Positions 1 through 50,445 of a stretch of DNA of 63,029 nt are shown here, piece after piece. Made by a program: the position numbers and the translations under genes. Where the stretch lies: positions 1-63,029 of the forward strand of contig JAVCCB010000085.1 of NCBI GenBank assembly GCA_030765685.1. Direction: 5' to 3'. The stretch's first letter is position 1; each line of letters opens with the position of its first letter. Source of the stretch: Candidatus Tantalella remota (lineage in GTDB: Bacteria > Omnitrophota > Gorgyraeia > Tantalellales > Tantalellaceae). The notes below the pieces were generated by a model. The model made no database searches. It saw nothing but the letters and a program-made list of their open reading frames with translations, and had not been told where the DNA came from.

Positions 1-53
1 GAATATTCGGTCCCGGTAACCAGATACAGGCTGTTATTTATTATTTTATCCAT
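1..53 (-). CDS. 5' end of a thiamine-pathway gene, probably thiamine-phosphate synthase (ThiE-like); runs off the window
   Basis: ATG at 53 reads MDKIINNSLYLVTGTEY. SLYLVT resembles the ThiE N-terminus, and the gene lies directly downstream of a TPP riboswitch. Confidence 0.5.
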   Translation of the reverse strand, partial: MDKIINNSLYLVTGTEY

Positions 54-80
54 AAAAAAACCCCGCGCTGCCGCACAGGG
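54..80 (-). terminator. Intrinsic terminator (riboswitch expression platform)
   Basis: Minus strand CCCTGTGC-GGCA-GCGCGGGG followed by T7, between the aptamer and the ATG. Confidence 0.75.
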
Positions 81-83
81 TCC

Positions 84-236
84 TCACCTCCCTACGCTGG
101 CATTATCCAGCTGCCACAACAATGTTTTTATTGCAGCAGTCCGCCATAGTTTTAGCGATGGCGGATCAGGTTAAACGGGTAATCCGCCTTCAACCGGCGG
201 AACTCTCAGAGGCCGTACGCCCTCCCCGGAAACATC
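84..236 (-). ncRNA. TPP riboswitch aptamer with expanded P3 and a 54-nt insertion at J4/5
   Basis: Minus strand shows GGGGAG...CTGAGA...ACCCG..AACCTGAT[54 nt]CTGGATAATGCCAGCGTAGGGAG, i.e. all hallmark TPP motifs. Confidence 0.88.
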
Positions 237-389
237 TGTCACAACTGATTAGACCATATATCCTTAAGGGTGTCAATATCTATGTAAAAGGCCCGAAACA
301 GTAGTTTTTTATGGTATTTGGGAGGGCTTTTATATATAATCATTAGACAATAAACATATGACAACAAGGTCATATGAAAAGGAGCAATC

Positions 390-1922
390 ATGAATCTAAG
401 CATATGCAGTAAATGTAAAAAAACCGTACCTGTTGACCATAAACAGGAGAACGGAAAAGAATATCTTGTAAAGAAATGTCCGGAATGCGGCGAAACTACC
501 GAACTTGTCTCTAACGACTCATCTCAGTACAACAGAAAACGCGACGCGATGAGCGGTGAGGATTATCCCGGCTGTTCTATGAACTGTCTTCAATGCACTC
601 ACAGGCTTCCGAATATCGTCTTTATCGAGACTACCAACCGCTGTAACATGAACTGCCCTATCTGCATCACGAACGTACCTTCGATGGGTTTTGAATTCGA
701 ACCAAAAATGGAATATTTTGAGAAGATATTCAAGCATTACTCGCAGTTCGAGTTCCCGCCTTCAATACAGCTTTTCGGCGGAGAACCTACGATGCGCGAC
801 GACATCTTCGATGTCATCAACCTGGCGAAATCCTACGAACTCTCAGTCAGGCTCGTCACCAACGGTCTGAAGATGGCCGACGAAGCCTATTGCGAAAAAG
901 TTATGTCCTCAGGCGCGGCCGTCCTGATATCTTTTGACGGCCTGAAGCGAGAGATGTACGAAGCCCTCCGCGCTTCCGGATCGTATCTCGACATCAAGAC
1001 AAAAGCATTGGAAAACATCTCAAAACGCAAAAGTGGTAAAGTCGTCCTTATGACGGTAATGGACAAAAACATGAACGGCGAAGATATGCCGCTGTTCCTG
1101 GATTACTGCTTAAAACATCCGCGGACGGTACGCGGGATCTTTCTCATGCCGCTTGCCCATGTATGGTCGGAGAACCGGCTTGATTATAAACCTGAAAGGA
1201 CGACGCCGGAAGACGTCGAAAAGATAGTGGATGATTCTGTTGAAGGCGATGTAGAGTTCATCCCGCTCGGAGCTATGAACTTTAAGAACCTGGCCAGGAT
1301 ATTCAAAATAAAGAACATGCCTTTCGTGGGCGTTCACCCCAACTGCGAAAGTTTTACTTTACTTATGTCCAACGGCGAAAAATACATATCTTTTAACACT
1401 TATCTTAAGTACGACGCCCTATCATGGGTCAATGATATAAGAAAAGTCGACGGCAAAGGCAAGCGGTACCTCGAAAAACCCACAGGAGCCTGGGGAAAAG
1501 CCCTTCTGTCGCTTTCCGTGGCGGGCATTTTTATCAAACACGCTAACATGGGCGCTATAGTCGGCGCCAAAGGGTTTCAGGCGTTCTGGAAATGGATGCG
1601 GTTCTTCGGATCGCTTCTCACGGGAAAGAAGTTCAAGGACGTCCTTAAGGAGCAGACCCGGATAAAAGGCATCCTGCAGGTGCTCTTGCTCCCGTTCGAG
1701 GACGACTGTACGATAGAAAGCGAACGGCTTGAAAAATGTTCCTCCTGTTTCGCCTACATAGACACAGCCACTGACAGTATAAGAAATATCCCCTTCTGTA
1801 TCTGGGAAAAGTACAAGAACGTCATAATGAAAGATATGGCTATAGCCTACAATAAGGACGGGTATACCAAAGGCCTTGAAGGCGAAACAATAAAAACCGG
1901 ACAGGTGGTGGATAATGCTTAA
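390..1922 (+). CDS. Radical SAM protein, Tes/GDGT-MAS (MJ0619)-like
   Basis: N-terminal CSKC...CPECG metal site, CSMNCLQCTH, RS motif CNMNCPIC, GGEPT, and C-terminal HPNC / EKCSSC / IPFC. Confidence 0.75.
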   Translation: MNLSICSKCKKTVPVDHKQENGKEYLVKKCPECGETTELVSNDSSQYNRKRDAMSGEDYPGCSMNCLQCTHRLPNIVFIETTNRCNMNCPICITNVPSMGFEFEPKMEYFEKIFKHYSQFEFPPSIQLFGGEPTMRDDIFDVINLAKSYELSVRLVTNGLKMADEAYCEKVMSSGAAVLISFDGLKREMYEALRASGSYLDIKTKALENISKRKSGKVVLMTVMDKNMNGEDMPLFLDYCLKHPRTVRGIFLMPLAHVWSENRLDYKPERTTPEDVEKIVDDSVEGDVEFIPLGAMNFKNLARIFKIKNMPFVGVHPNCESFTLLMSNGEKYISFNTYLKYDALSWVNDIRKVDGKGKRYLEKPTGAWGKALLSLSVAGIFIKHANMGAIVGAKGFQAFWKWMRFFGSLLTGKKFKDVLKEQTRIKGILQVLLLPFEDDCTIESERLEKCSSCFAYIDTATDSIRNIPFCIWEKYKNVIMKDMAIAYNKDGYTKGLEGETIKTGQVVDNA

Positions 1923-3429
1923 CAGAGACGTGAACGCGCTGTGCCCCAAGTGCAATAAGCAGGTCAAAGGCAGCATATACGAAAAAGACGGAAAAGTGTT
2001 CCTCCGCAAGGAATGCGCCGAAGACGGTATCATCGTAGATATGCTCTCATCTAACGCGCAGCTTTTCCGGGACAGGATGAGCCTGCTTGACCATGCCGCG
2101 CCGAACAAGTGCAGCATGGAGAAGTGCTCTCGCGGTATATTTAACTGCCCGGATCACGTAAGTAAGAAATCACCTCTCGCTTTTATCGAGATCACCACAA
2201 ACTGCAATATGAGATGTCCCGTATGCTACGTGAACGCCGCGGAGAAAGGCCGTGACATGCCTTTTGAGGACATCTGCCGTATCATAGATACCATAGCCGA
2301 CATGGACAAGGACACCCACGTCATCCTTATAGGCGGCGAGCCGACGATACATAAGGATTTTTTCAAGATACTCAAAAAGATCGAGTCGAAGGGGCTGATG
2401 AAAAGAACGTTCATCGCCACTAACGGTATCACGCTTGCCAACAAAGAGTTCTGCAAAAAAGTACAGAACGCGGGGATCAAAAAATTCTATCTGGGTTTCG
2501 ACGGTACCGACCGTGAGGCCTGCGAAAAAATACGCGGGACTTACCTGGCTTACGATTCCGTCAGAAAAGCACTCGAAAACATACGCGAGAACGGAAAAGC
2601 GTGGATCATACTATCGATAACCGCGGTCCGGGATCTGAACGTCGAAGATATCCCCTCGGCGATCGAATTCGCTCTTGATAATTCCGATATAGTAAAAAGG
2701 ATAATGGTCTCACCCGAAGTTTACTGCGGCAGGATAAACGAAAACGACGACCTTTCAGAGAACCGGCTTACCGGCGACTGCATAGAAGATTATCTCAGAA
2801 ACACCCTGGGGATAAAAGTCGCTACGGTATCGATAAGCCTTTTCTTCACGCTCATAAAGCCCCTTAAAAGCATGGGTATCCTCGACTCCGAAAGCTGGAT
2901 GGCGGGTATGCCGAGTCCTTTCTGCGGCCAGATGGGGCTTCTCTGGAAAAAAAACGACGGGAAGTATTTTTCCATCGTGGATTTTCTGGTCAAGAACGCG
3001 GCTGAAAAAGTATATGATCTTGGAAGACGTGCCGGAAAATTCGCAGAAAAAGTAGACCGCGTCAAAACTCGTCTTTCGGGGACAATCGCGGGGCGGATAC
3101 TCTGGAAGGCCACCGTTTACCTGTACTTCATCCCGGCCTATTTCTTCATGATATTCAGCTATCTCAACAAAGGCAACCTCTTCTCCTTTCTCGGAGGGCT
3201 GATAATGGCCGGGTTTAATATAAAAAAGTTTAAGACGGAATTTTTCGGCAGAAAAATAGAACTTTTTTATCTTCTCGGGTCGGATAAGTTCAACTATATC
3301 TGGGACAAGATGCCGTACTGCCTTACGCATCATTACCGCATCCATCCTGATACGAACGAGGTCATAAAGCTGCCGGGTTGTTTTGTTTTTTCTTTCAGGG
3401 AAGAGTTAGAGAAAACCGCCGCGAAGTAA
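1915..3429 (+). CDS. Second radical SAM protein, Tes/GDGT-MAS-like paralog
   Basis: LCPKC...KVFLRKEC, CPDH, RS motif CNMRCPVC, GGEPT, SPFC, PYC...LPGC. Start overlaps the upstream stop. Confidence 0.75.
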   Translation: MLNRDVNALCPKCNKQVKGSIYEKDGKVFLRKECAEDGIIVDMLSSNAQLFRDRMSLLDHAAPNKCSMEKCSRGIFNCPDHVSKKSPLAFIEITTNCNMRCPVCYVNAAEKGRDMPFEDICRIIDTIADMDKDTHVILIGGEPTIHKDFFKILKKIESKGLMKRTFIATNGITLANKEFCKKVQNAGIKKFYLGFDGTDREACEKIRGTYLAYDSVRKALENIRENGKAWIILSITAVRDLNVEDIPSAIEFALDNSDIVKRIMVSPEVYCGRINENDDLSENRLTGDCIEDYLRNTLGIKVATVSISLFFTLIKPLKSMGILDSESWMAGMPSPFCGQMGLLWKKNDGKYFSIVDFLVKNAAEKVYDLGRRAGKFAEKVDRVKTRLSGTIAGRILWKATVYLYFIPAYFFMIFSYLNKGNLFSFLGGLIMAGFNIKKFKTEFFGRKIELFYLLGSDKFNYIWDKMPYCLTHHYRIHPDTNEVIKLPGCFVFSFREELEKTAAK

Positions 3430-9557: not shown

Positions 9558-10186
9558 TTGAATATCACCCCTGTTTCTGCTGACCAGAATAAAAGATCAA
9601 GTTCGACCATTGGTATACCTATTCTGTCTGAAAATCGTCTAAGTCTGCCCTCCAGGCTTAAATACCTTTTTTCCGTCAAAGTCTTCGGTACTTCTTTTAT
9701 GATCCCGAATCTTATCATGTTCTTCAGGATATGAACGTCCAGTATCGCCAGGTCCCTTCCGAAACCTATGTTCCTTAAAAAATGACTGGCTTCTTTAAAC
9801 CCTATCCCCTTCACGTTCCGGACCAGCCAGTGCCTCGTGGCAGGGATATCATCTTCGTCTATCCTGCCTTTTATCCTGATACCGCGTTTTTCGGTAAAAA
9901 GATCGCGCGTTTCAACGATATAGCGAGCCTTATTGTTCGGGAACCGCACGGCTTTGAGGCCTACCCTTATCTGCTCCGCGCTGCCTTTATAAAGAACACC
10001 GCTTTTCACAAGTCCCGCTACGGCTTTATCACACTGGATCGCGCTGGACTGGGGCGTACAGATACAAAAACAAAGCTCACTGAAGATCCTTTTTTCCGAT
10101 TCTCCCCAGACAGCCTCGAACTCTTTAAGCCTCTTTTTTATAGCTCTTTTCTGTCGCTGGTACTCGCCTGCTAATGCCTTTTTCAT
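9554..10186 (-). CDS. ogg: N-glycosylase/DNA lyase (8-oxoguanine, Thermotoga/archaeal Ogg type)
   Basis: ELCFCICTPQS, VRFPNNKA, HhH VKGIGFKEASHFLRNIG, AILDVHIL. Confidence 0.9.
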   Translation of the reverse strand: MKKALAGEYQRQKRAIKKRLKEFEAVWGESEKRIFSELCFCICTPQSSAIQCDKAVAGLVKSGVLYKGSAEQIRVGLKAVRFPNNKARYIVETRDLFTEKRGIRIKGRIDEDDIPATRHWLVRNVKGIGFKEASHFLRNIGFGRDLAILDVHILKNMIRFGIIKEVPKTLTEKRYLSLEGRLRRFSDRIGIPMVELDLLFWSAETGVIFK

Positions 10187-12986: not shown

Positions 12987-13062
12987 AACCCCGCCCCTTT
13001 GGCAGTTTCTTTTTCAATAACTTCTTTTTACTCCTTTTTTCCAAATGCCCAAAGGGGCTGGG
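12987..13062. repeat. CCCCGCCCYTTTGGCA inverted-repeat element
   Basis: AACCCCGCCCCTTTGGCAG ... TGCCCAAAGGGGCTGGG; related copy at 15523-15573. Confidence 0.55.
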
Positions 13063-13096
13063 TAAGTGCGGCTTTGTAACTTATGTTCACTTTGTT

Positions 13097-13141
13097 TCCG
13101 CCTTCGCTAAACTATTTAGATAGCATTTAGCTACGGCGGAC
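13097..13141. repeat. TCCGCC...GGCGGA palindromic (REP-like) element with internal hairpin
   Basis: Reverse complement GTCCGCCGTAGC[18 nt]TTTAGCGAAGGCGGA matches 139-165 and 19272-19339. Confidence 0.7.
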
Positions 13142-13164
13142 TTTGCCATAAGTTACAACCTTCC

Positions 13165-13584
13165 TTACGCCTTCCACAACATGTGCACCGTGCAAAACTC
13201 GCGGACTTCCACGATATCATCTTTTGATACGCAGCAGAAATGAGCTTCCGGCGCGTCTCCGGGCTTAAGCTCCGCCCTGAGAACATTATCTTTAGTGAGC
13301 ACCTCAATGAACTTGATATAATGAGCATCTTCCATCGGATGTGCCACACTGCCAACTTTTACTTTTATACATACGTCCTCTTCTCCGCAACAGTCACAGG
13401 AGCTGGTAGCCTTCCCTGTCTCTTCTATCACCGGAACGTGTTTTTCTCCTCCAACATCCTCTGTTTTGGCTTCCATCTTACCCATAGGCTGACCGCAGCA
13501 GACAAGCGCCGGGGCGCCTTCGTTCGCTATTTCAACTATGTTACCGCATATTTCGCATCTGTAAAGTTCTCTTAAAACTGTCAT
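13165..13584 (-). CDS. dfx: Desulfoferrodoxin (superoxide reductase)
   Basis: CEICGN...LVCCG centre I; EKHVP, HPM...H and CTVH centre II. Confidence 0.93.
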   Translation of the reverse strand: MTVLRELYRCEICGNIVEIANEGAPALVCCGQPMGKMEAKTEDVGGEKHVPVIEETGKATSSCDCCGEEDVCIKVKVGSVAHPMEDAHYIKFIEVLTKDNVLRAELKPGDAPEAHFCCVSKDDIVEVREFCTVHMLWKA

Positions 13585-18977: not shown

Positions 18978-19110
18978 TTTCTCTCCTCTTTTTGTTTTCT
19001 ATTCTTACCCTCTAAATTACTTGTCCTATTACTCTAATTCTCTCTTCTTTGTTTCCCCAATACTCTATTGTAGTCTTATTTCCATTTATCGCACCTTATA
19101 TCTCACAGTA

Positions 19111-19138
19111 ATGATATCATATTAGTATCATTTGTCAA
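19111..19138 (-). promoter_or_regulatory. Promoter with overlapping palindromic operator, site 2 (hcp)
   Basis: Plus strand ATGATAT-CATATTA-GTATCAT-T-TGTCAA. Confidence 0.7.
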
Positions 19139-19163
19139 TAGTTATTTTAGCCCCCTCCAATAG

Positions 19164-19362
19164 AGACGTCATTCCCGCGCGACCGAGAGGCAAAGGTCCC
19201 CGAGAAAGTGCCGAAAGCCAGAGGGCTTCGACGAAGCGGGAATCTAGACGTCATCCCGGAATCCGCGGCCTGTCCGCCATAGCCTTGGCGACAAAGTCCG
19301 CCGTAGCCAGATAAAACCTGAACAGCTTGGCGAAGAAGGGGTCTACGGGGGTCTACGGGGAC
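19164..19362. repeat. Mosaic of nested REP-like palindromes
   Basis: GTCATTCCCGC...GCGGGAATC with inner hairpins, a deleted second copy, two GTCCGCCRTAGC...CTTGGCGA units, and a GGGGTCTAC tandem. Confidence 0.65.
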
Positions 19363-19400
19363 GTTTGTTGTTTTAAATTTAGGCCGTAAAAATTTTTAAT

Positions 19401-19563
19401 CCTAGACCTGTCCCTTTCCAGCATATATGCTGCTGTTAACCATATTCGTACTACATGATTAAGGATCTTGGCGGGGATTTAGCTTTTATCTGTACTTTTT
19501 CGCTGGGGACAGGTCTAGGCACAAAATCAGGGACGGGTGTGGGATTAAAGTGAGAAACGTCCC
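19401..19563. repeat. GGGACAGGTCTAG inverted-repeat element
   Basis: CCTAGACCTGTCCC (19401) is inverted to GGGACAGGTCTAGG (19506); 33 nt recur at 42274 with one mismatch. Confidence 0.7.
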
Positions 19564-19584
19564 TACATATACAATCTATAGATA

Positions 19585-19628
19585 CAAAAAACCCCGCTGA
19601 TAAAAAAAAGGTTTTTGCGGGGTTTTTG
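19585..19628. terminator. Bidirectional terminator-like hairpin
   Basis: CAAAAAACCCCGC...GCGGGGTTTTTG. Confidence 0.65.
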
Positions 19629-19818
19629 TCATACGCGCAACTCACGCATACGTATAAATCTATGGCCTTACCTCTCAAATAAGCTTCGTTTCTCCTAACT
19701 ATTAAAGTATATCATATAAAATCCGATTTGGCAAATTTAAGGGGAAGATTTTTTTTCAGGCAAATCGGTCTTACCTGTGTTTAAGCGGAGAAGATGTGTC
19801 TCGGGAATCCCTTTTCGC

Positions 19819-20007
19819 CTATTTAGCGACGCCTGTCTTCCTTAAAATTGTCATCATGAGGCACCAGTTGGTAAATGCCGACTGGAGAAGATTGATCCCG
19901 ACAAAAGCGGTGAACCATAACCATTTCAAGTTTACAAAATAAGCGAGCAACAGGCTTGCCAGAATAAAAAATCCCGCCAGGGCCCTTAGTGTTCTTTCCA
20001 TATCCAT
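19819..20007 (-). CDS. DUF2892 (YgaP-like) small membrane protein
   Basis: FVGINLLQSAFTNWCLM. Confidence 0.9.
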   Translation of the reverse strand: MDMERTLRALAGFFILASLLLAYFVNLKWLWFTAFVGINLLQSAFTNWCLMMTILRKTGVAK

Positions 20008-20017
20008 GACATACCTC

Positions 20018-49973: not shown

Positions 49974-50007
49974 AAAAAAAAGGCCTGGCAATTTCTTGCC
50001 AGGCCTT
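49974..50007 (-). terminator. Terminator downstream of csp (probably bidirectional)
   Basis: AAGGCCTGGCAA-TTTC-TTGCCAGGCCTT with an A8 tract. Confidence 0.85.
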
Positions 50008-50024
50008 ATCTTTTATTCAGCACA

Positions 50025-50228
50025 TTACAGCTTTACTACGTTTGTCGCCTGCGGGCCTTTTGCGCCTTCTTCGACGTCAAACTGAACCTTCTGACCTTCG
50101 CCCAGAGACTTGAAACCTTCGCCCTGGATCGCGTTGTGGTGAACGAAACAATCTTTGCTTCCGTCATCCGGTGTAATAAAACCATAACCCTTTGAGTCGT
50201 TAAACCATTTTACTGTTCCTGTTGCCAT
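50025..50228 (-). CDS. Cold-shock protein
   Basis: [15 protein letters not shown]...FVHH. Confidence 0.97.
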
Positions 50229-50445
50229 TGCTTCTACCTCCTGTTAAAAATAACATTACCGCAAATAAGGCCTAATGCAAAAAACCACAAGGCGATTTTG
50301 TTCCTAACCCTGTGGTTTAAAACTATCACTCCTCATTTGCTACCTCTACAACGAACATTATACCGCGATACCGCCAGAGGTCAACATAAATAGTGTTTTT
50401 TCTTATACCCCTGTTTTTTTTTGCAAACCTGCGCAAAATGGGCGT

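Follow-up and report, generated by a model that had tools for sequence, protein, structure and literature searches.

A two-hairpin insert beside the ligand pocket of a thiamin pyrophosphate riboswitch in Omnitrophota, and its relation to a dispersed palindrome

The thiamine biosynthesis gene thiE of Candidatus Tantalella remota (Omnitrophota) is preceded by a thiamin pyrophosphate (TPP) riboswitch whose conserved core is interrupted by 54 additional nucleotides. The locus lies at the left edge of the window, by which we mean the whole stretch of 63,029 nucleotides analysed here (contig JAVCCB010000085.1, positions 1 to 63,029). Read directly on the minus strand from position 300 to 1, the order is promoter, TPP aptamer, a G+C-rich hairpin followed by seven uridines, and the thiE start codon (Table 1). 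A sequence-only reading of the window had recognised the TPP riboswitch of this leader, which the family match, the core motifs and the assignment of ThiE to PF02581 bear out. The 17 ThiE residues encoded within the window are the N-terminus of protein P0002 of the same species, encoded on the comparison locus L012, whose leader differs from that of the window at two positions. The promoter was read by eye and is identical in the alignment with a sister species (L010). A consensus scanner had skipped it, as it demands an A at position 2 of the -10 hexamer, and under strict rules the terminator was missed as well.

Table 1. Features of the interrupted thiE leader and of the related palindromes in the window; features on the minus strand are numbered from high to low
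Feature	Position	Strand	Sequence elements and remarks
Sigma-70-like promoter of the thiE leader	276..248	-	TTGACA 276..271, 17-nt spacer, TCTAAT 253..248
TPP aptamer, interrupted	238..84	-	P2 GGGG, P3, P3a, CUGAGA 209..204, ACCC 180..177; from the RF00059 and pattern match
P3a stem-loop, native and optional	202..181	-	UCCGCC 201..196 / GGCGGA 188..183
P4 and junctions	CCUG 170..167 / UAGG 94..91	-	J4/5 AU 166..165; J5/4 CG 96..95; from the aptamer reading
Insert of 54 nt	164..111	-	between AACCUGAU (ends 165) and CUGGAUAAUGCCAG (110..97)
Hairpin A	164..140	-	CCGCCAU-CGCUAAAACU-AUGGCGG(A); read as a truncated repetitive extragenic palindromic (REP)-like unit
Hairpin B	139..111	-	12-bp stem CUGCUGCAAUAA / UUGUUGUGGCAG, loop AAACA
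P5/L5 hairpin	110..97	-	CUGG-AUAAUG-CCAG; same as in Escherichia coli thiM
Intrinsic terminator	82..54	-	CCCUGUGC 80..73 / GCGCGGGG 68..61, U7 60..54
thiE start	53..1	-	ATG 53..51, opens MDKIINNSLYLVTGTEYS..., runs past the left window edge
Full REP-like palindrome unit	13097..13140	+	TCCGCCTTCGCTAAA ... TTTAGCTACGGCGGA; intergenic, desulfoferrodoxin/rubrerythrin genes
REP-like array, one full and one half unit	19272..19344	-	in a 1-kb intergenic region

How well does this RNA conform to the accepted family? Searched with permissive thresholds, RF00059 matches positions 238..72 of the minus strand with 28.2 bits (E 0.0012) and leaves 62 nt in the P5 region unaligned. This is why the window aptamer falls short of the gathering score of 54.3 bits and is not reported there. 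The conserved core itself is complete: all upper-case consensus blocks of the family occur (GGGG, CUGAGA, ACCC, AACCUGAUC and GCGUAGGGA), and the motifs GGGG, CUGAGA (J3/2), ACCC, ACCUGAU and CGUAGGGA follow each other in the correct order and, except for the insert, with the correct spacing. The minimum free energy (MFE) fold of the full leader gives P2, P3, P3a, P4 and P5, the terminator, and two further separate helices, hairpins A and B. In the numbering of the E. coli thiM riboswitch, the residues G60, C77, G78, U59 and A80 as well as L5 (UAAU) are all unaltered. In thiM, the pyrophosphate with its bound metal is contacted by G60, C77 and G78, and P3 receives L5 (U68-U71) in a tertiary contact (PMC3764141). 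The element further stands in a thiamine-gene leader, with its terminator hairpin and U7 before the AUG, and is orthologous to accepted members of the family in other Omnitrophota. It thus agrees with RF00059 in core sequence, helices, pocket and tertiary-contact residues, gene context and orthology, and fails it in score.

The insert interrupts the RNA at a single bond, between U62 and C63 of thiM, at the boundary of J4/5 (AU) and P5 and two nucleotides 3' of G60. When it is deleted in silico, the P4-P5 arm ACCUGAUCUGGAUAAUGCCAGCGUAGGGA is identical at 29 of 29 positions to the annotated TPP riboswitch of E. coli thiM, an RNA with a solved crystal structure. Both MFE and centroid structures fold the insert into hairpin A followed by hairpin B, which converts the stack of P4, J4/5 and P5 into a four-way junction where both hairpins join P4 and P5. 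In the sequence-only reading the length, the two hairpins and their place at the J4/5-P5 boundary (positions 111-164) were given correctly, and only the strand was confused, in that minus-strand motifs were quoted with plus-strand coordinates. Without the insert, the flanks restore the canonical AACCUGAU|CUGGAU exactly, and not a single base is duplicated. There is no target-site duplication, and the insert does not show the combination of terminal inverted repeats and target-site duplication that marks a transposable element of the miniature inverted-repeat type (MITE).

Orthologous leaders reveal the direction of the change. The thiE leaders of four other Omnitrophota (L013, L014, L015 and L016, ThiE 62-65% identical) carry canonical RF00059 aptamers of 63-79 bits, in which (A/G)ACCUGAUCUGG(A/G)UAAUGCCAGCG is unbroken and the cores are nearly identical to that of the window. 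As these orthologs are uninterrupted, the insert is a derived state. In a sister species, represented by the two independent assemblies L010 and L011 and related to the window species with 77% identity in ThiE and 91% in a neighbouring radical S-adenosylmethionine (SAM) protein, 120 nt separate the same AACCUGAU and CUGGAUAAUGCCAG. The ends of this longer insert are homologous to those of the window: it begins with CC(G/A)CC at the 5' side and ends with GGCGGAC and then hairpin B, whose 3' arm AUUGUUGUGG is the same. In the alignment, the window insert corresponds to the L010 version minus two internal stretches of 48 and 18 nt. The repeat part measures 25 nt in the window and about 90 nt in the sister species, and hairpin A is the positional homolog of a two-unit array in the L010 insert. 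From these sequences, the simplest history would be one insertion in the common ancestor, after which the repeat part grew or shrank. In the GTDB representative of the sister species, exactly 100 N cover the aptamer and the insert (L002:3768-3867), the true length in L010 being 174 nt; this run is either a scaffold gap at the repeat or deliberate masking. L002 was accordingly set aside for the aptamer, and relatives with readable leaders were collected by way of their ThiE homologs.

The same comparison clarifies a second hairpin. A CCGCC/GGCGG stem at positions 181-202 had been noted as an addition to P3. The hairpin exists, and it is neither part of P3 nor a copy of the repeat: it is the native P3a. 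Every canonical Omnitrophota ortholog has the UCCG/CGGA base of this stem, with UUCCG...CGGAUU common to L013, L016 and L010. Its position agrees with the Rfam consensus and with the survey in which P3a occurs in 552 of 907 TPP riboswitches (PMC2258182). We had considered it as a possible second repeat insertion, which the ancestral stem base rules out.

Where does hairpin A come from? The sequence-only reading had taken the hairpin at 139-165 for a copy of a dispersed palindrome that is also found near 13097 and 19272. The relationship stands, and so does the recurrence of the motif at two other loci of the window; the copies are related and not identical, hairpin A being truncated and hairpin B not derived from the palindrome. 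The unit is imperfect, of the form TCCGCCTTCGCTAAA - loop - TTTAGCTACGGCGGAC, and two full units exist in the window. A search with hairpin A allowing three mismatches finds only hairpin A itself. Since the family is too degenerate for such a search, gapped and profile comparisons were used instead. In a gapped alignment that spans a loop deletion, hairpin A matches the copy at 13097-13140 at 25 of 26 positions. This is the top non-self match in the whole window on either strand, and none of 2000 shuffles equals its score. The copies at 13097-13140 and 19272-19344 match each other with an nhmmer E of 0.004. A profile built from these two intergenic copies only finds two matches in the leader insert of L010/L011 (E 3e-4 and 1.4e-3) and no other match in 0.95 Mb of other loci. 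The short palindrome motif is seen four times against 1.0 expected. With nhmmer profiles no more copies were found in the 63-kb window or in 140 other loci, so that the copies seen are three loci in the window plus two units in the L010/L011 leader. Related copies thus stand at unlinked sites and form imperfect palindromes capable of a hairpin, though the fold around 19272 is no better than that of shuffles. Their location is extragenic, both full copies being intergenic and the third lying in a 5' leader. The alignment to the 13097 copy and the profile matches in the L010/L011 insert together identify hairpin A as a truncated member of a repeat family found in both the window species and its sister species.

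Two observations concern the surroundings of the intergenic copies. The unit at 13097-13140 is nested in a longer 12-bp inverted repeat (TTGTAACTTATG / CATAAGTTACAA) at positions 13050-13190 (fold z -2.5), which may serve as an intercistronic stabiliser or terminator. The 1-kb intergenic region at 18978-20017, upstream of a gene for a hybrid-cluster (prismane) protein, holds palindromic units clustered at ~19140-19345, a tandem GGGGTCTACGG repeat at 19338-19360 and a terminator-like hairpin near 19590-19625.

The window species and the sister species are well diverged: identity at fourfold-degenerate sites is 51% in thiE and 53% in the radical-SAM gene. Against this background, the aptamer 5' of the insert is 89% identical between the window and L010, with differences mainly in the distal P3 loop, the aptamer 3' of the insert 96%, and the terminator with its U-tract 100%, while the insert itself reaches 72% with a further 66 nt of indels. 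Both species carry the insert and their leaders are nonetheless far above neutral-site identity, which indicates that selection on the switch acted after the insertion. The regulated genes point in the same direction: codon positions 1, 2 and 3 of thiE are 81, 91 and 58% identical between the two species, the downstream thi genes are intact, and by these comparisons they are under purifying selection. In the relatives the operon reads thiE-thiS-thiG-thiH (L010) or thiE-thiG-thiH-thiF (L002).

Hairpin B behaves differently from the repeat part. No second copy of it was found, nor is there a B-like hairpin beside the other palindrome copies at 13097 and 19272, and we therefore rejected the idea that it is itself a repeat. 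Seven of the 12 pairs in its stem vary among the window, L012 and L010, six by one-sided changes and one by a double change, yet pairing stays at 100% in all three; registers slid against each other give 27-77% pairing. In L010 the stem contains seven G-U pairs, from which it follows that the helix forms on the riboswitch strand only.

The expression platform downstream of the aptamer is an intrinsic terminator whose hairpin folds with -20.7 kcal/mol (z -3.6). The CCCUGUG of its 5' arm is complementary to CGUAGGG (96..90), that is, to J5/4 and the 3' strand of P4, and L013 and L016 keep a corresponding complementarity (CCCUAUG versus CGUAGG) despite different terminator loops. The insert lies within the loop closed by P4, adding 54 nt to the path between the P4 strands, and leaves the decision window 3' of the aptamer unaltered. 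These elements suggest how the switch could have arisen and could work. A REP-like palindrome would have landed at U62|C63 in the pyrophosphate-sensor arm in the common ancestor of the window species and its sister species, and hairpin A plus the unique hairpin B would have opened the stack into the four-way junction. P4 and P5 are presumably still stacked coaxially with the hairpins pointing away, so that the pyrophosphate pocket of G60, C77 and G78 and the contact between L5 and P3 would be retained. With TPP bound, P4 would sequester CGUAGGG, and the CCCUGUGC...GCGCGGGG-U7 terminator would form ahead of the thiE AUG; without TPP, CGUAGGG would pair with CCCUGUG as a putative antiterminator, leading to read-through. 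Another candidate for this role, the 5' arm of hairpin B, which is complementary to GCGGCA in the terminator, was not adopted, as hairpin B is stable regardless of the ligand and the complementarity is short.

In two of the canonical orthologs a further structure separates the TPP terminator from thiE. It is a conserved, structured element of ~110 nt (L013:~495-610 and L016:~1350-1490) with the pattern GGGACGUYCGAUCCC ... GGAUCGGACC ... UGAAUGUCCUUG ... UUCGGACRUUC, for which there is no Rfam match at E<=0.1. It is missing from the leaders of the window and L010, where the AUG directly follows the U-tract, and could be a second leader element.

Is the bond between U62 and C63 interrupted in other TPP riboswitches as well? 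A scan of metagenomes of the Joint Genome Institute (JGI) for TPP cores in which ACCUGAU and CGUAGGGA lie 40-70 nt apart yielded at least 120 loci (L020-L139). Among the 120 matches listed, about 90 are distal extensions of P5: the form CUCGGGAAGCC...GGAAGACGAG, which has an internal loop and a further helix in place of L5, is common to 50, and GCGGAUAAUGCCGCCGUAGGAA...CCCUAUGGC...ACCGC to 15. The topology of the window, in which GAU is followed by one or two hairpins and then a canonical P5, occurs at nine of the matches listed, which fall into six sequence families: L026 (thiC), L042/L059 (substrate-binding protein), L060, L064, L082/L114/L121 (thi4) and L135 (thi4). L135 also belongs to Omnitrophota and bears a two-hairpin insert at U62|C63 (L135:156-274). 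A further case was retrieved via its Thi4 protein: an Omnitrophota thi4 leader (L143/L145:~9790-9935) with a different two-hairpin insert at the same bond, whereas the thi4 leaders L141, L142 and L144 are canonical (Thi4 proteins of the set 78-86% identical). In all these loci including L143, cores, thiamine genes and terminators are intact. The inserted sequences are totally different between lineages; within the L082 family both inserted helices are kept at their bases and vary distally. The bond thus appears to have been filled by separate gains, of which at least three lie within Omnitrophota (window/L010, L135 and L143).

The origin of these other inserts seems to be a different matter. 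None of those of L026, L042/L059, L060, L064, the L082 family, L135 or L143 is repeated within 2-20 kb of its own contig, which leaves a REP origin unsupported for the other lineages. Hairpin A of L135 (TCCTCC...GAGGAC) resembles the palindrome family by eye and gives no profile match at E below 10. Sequence comparison thus supports a repeat origin for the insert of the window lineage only. L121, one of the contigs with a four-way-junction thi4 riboswitch, additionally holds a match to group II intron domains D1-D4 (RF02005, 53.3 bits, L121:155-416, minus strand).

How do such riboswitches fare in annotation? At the gathering score of RF00059 the search recovers the canonical controls and, among the loci with inserts, L064 alone, whose insert is the shortest. 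L026, L042, L059, L060, L082, L114, L121 and L135, eight of the nine topology loci, are missed together with L143, and both loci with P5 extensions that were tested (L020 and L032) also score below the threshold. Such inserts would consequently not be common in Rfam full alignments. The sequence-only reading had named a common occurrence of J4/5 hairpin insertions in these alignments as an argument against itself. So phrased, the argument does not apply, but the reading does not pass it cleanly either: as a topology, the insertion is clearly recurrent in metagenomes.

Taken together, these results lead us to regard the window element as probably a functional TPP OFF-switch of the thiE-thiS-thiG-thiH-thiF operon that acts by transcription termination, with a tolerated four-way junction at U62|C63 for which a REP-like palindrome provided the seed in an ancestor common to two Omnitrophota species. 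The RNA would presumably still bind its ligand. The riboswitch offers no new ligand or mechanism, and the insert is most likely neutral or mildly modulatory. A tolerated variant, altered specificity and inactivation had been left side by side in the sequence-only reading; conservation, intact contact motifs and recurrence favour the first, and the other two are disfavoured. Several observations weigh against a functional, tolerated switch. The upstream promoter region is also 87% conserved between the window and L010, and part of the leader conservation could stem from a short divergence of a generally constrained intergenic region. The insert is only two nucleotides from G60, a contact of the pyrophosphate-bound metal (PMC3764141), and the RF00059 score lies below the gathering threshold. 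In MFE folds hairpin A can take in U62, and C77 can find a partner in the last G of hairpin B; such a capture of U62 and C77 by the inserted helices could distort the pocket. The terminator is far stronger than the putative 7-bp antiterminator, which is absent from MFE folds, and a shuffle control of the pair count in hairpin B, with three sequences only, is not significant (176/500). If the repeat had killed the aptamer, the leader would be a relic and the operon constitutively terminated or read through. The halved Rfam score, the position next to the pyrophosphate pocket and the terminator in the whole-leader MFE fold would suit such a relic, yet we consider it quite improbable: flanks and terminator are conserved far beyond the about 52% at neutral sites with the insert already in both species, intact thi genes under purifying selection make a constitutive terminator unlikely, and independent lineages of the same topology keep perfect cores.

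Could the insert instead confer a changed or added property? This might be a different discrimination between thiamin, thiamin monophosphate (TMP) and TPP, altered folding or binding kinetics via the longer path from P4 to P4, or a site for protein binding or processing, with hairpin B and possibly hairpin A as selected parts. Hairpin B would be a good candidate, being unique, strand-specific and fully paired through seven variable pairs. In addition, at least three Omnitrophota leaders bear two-hairpin inserts at U62|C63, and within the L082 family the inserts at this bond have been conserved. The possible capture of U62 and C77 would fit as well, and bacterial TPP variants with P4-P5 mutations are known that lose the discrimination between thiamin, TMP and TPP (McCown et al. 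2017, PMC5473149). We do not place the window RNA with these variants, because its pocket residues are unmutated. The unchanged G60, C77, G78, U59, A80 and L5, inserts that differ wholly between lineages, a repeat part of such unequal length in two sister species, which fits tolerance better, and the plain thiamine-biosynthesis context make an added function unlikely, though a somewhat better prospect than inactivation. An artefact of assembly, or a chimera formed at a repeat, is hardly credible as a source of the insert. The 100 N placed exactly over this stretch in L002 would be expected if assemblers break at the repeat, but the insert-bearing architecture is present in four independent assemblies (window, L010 from ENA SPAdes, L011 from Logan and L012 from ENA megahit) that differ in sample and assembler and show species-specific differences, which excludes such an origin in our view.

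A wider interpretation goes beyond the preferred reading of a tolerated four-way junction, and we put it forward tentatively, as one that may well be wrong. U62|C63 might be a general optional-helix site that is absent from annotation and has been filled independently many times, at least three times in Omnitrophota, here by a REP-like mobile palindrome. The junction may tune folding kinetics or phosphate discrimination and, together with the distal P5 extensions, such forms might make up a sizeable population that goes undetected at Rfam thresholds. If this is true, new peripheral helices within riboswitch aptamers can be seeded by palindromes that are mobile.

Compared with the canonical TPP riboswitch (RF00059, THI element; E. 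coli thiM, PDB 2GDI), the window RNA shares the core motifs, P1-P5 and P3a, the context of thiamine genes and the terminator platform; it differs by the two hairpins between U62 and C63 and the resulting four-way junction in the pyrophosphate-sensor arm. P3a, which the window RNA also has, is the closest likeness within the class, as a facultative helix added at a sensor-arm junction without loss of function. It belongs to the pyrimidine-sensor arm and to the accepted consensus, whereas helices at J4/5-P5 lie outside the Rfam consensus. The palindrome family resembles REP palindromes and bacterial interspersed mosaic elements (BIMEs) in that its units are short, imperfect, dispersed and intergenic, occur singly or in tandem in varying number, and are common to related species; it differs in its three loci within 63 kb, one of them inside a riboswitch aptamer, and in the lack of a target-site duplication. 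Palindromic elements located inside functional genes and RNA genes are found in Rickettsia. Another parallel is the lineage-specific insertion of stem Sa in staphylococcal glyS T-boxes (PMC9177973), likewise a clade-restricted extra stem in a conserved regulatory RNA that stays functional. That stem belongs to another riboswitch class and to the expression platform, does not lie beside a ligand pocket, and has no link to a dispersed repeat. In the literature searched, REP or MITE elements within the aptamer of a riboswitch are not described, nor are extra helices at the J4/5-P5 boundary in the P4-P5 arm of TPP riboswitches.

No riboswitch class is more widespread or better studied than that of the TPP riboswitches, which are also drug targets. 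A natural and conserved variant that carries two helices at a distance of two nucleotides from a base in contact with the pyrophosphate points to a structurally permissive site beside the ligand pocket, one that could be used for engineering reporters or scaffolds into the aptamer. It is also a concrete and rare case of a dispersed palindrome that is tolerated, and perhaps co-opted, within a ligand-binding RNA core. As variants with inserts score under the gathering threshold of RF00059, the thiamine regulons of Omnitrophota and other uncultured lineages are under-annotated.

Some features of the wider window deserve mention. Divergent from the thiE leader, positions 390-3429 of the plus strand encode two tandem paralogous radical-SAM proteins of ~505 aa with an N-terminal HMPTM-type zinc ribbon (PF23545), followed by Tex and then ThyX. 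An exact-match search with the neighbouring radical-SAM protein gave no record. The relatives of its gene are all found in metagenome-assembled genomes (MAGs) of Candidatus Omnitrophota, and the synteny of the pair with the leader is kept in the sister species but not in more distant Omnitrophota. Far from this locus, positions 49977-50313 of the minus strand give a full-length match to the cspA thermoregulator RF01766 (106 bits, E 3.5e-26). The family was defined in enterobacteria, and the match in this Omnitrophota genome overlaps the coding region of a cold-shock protein.

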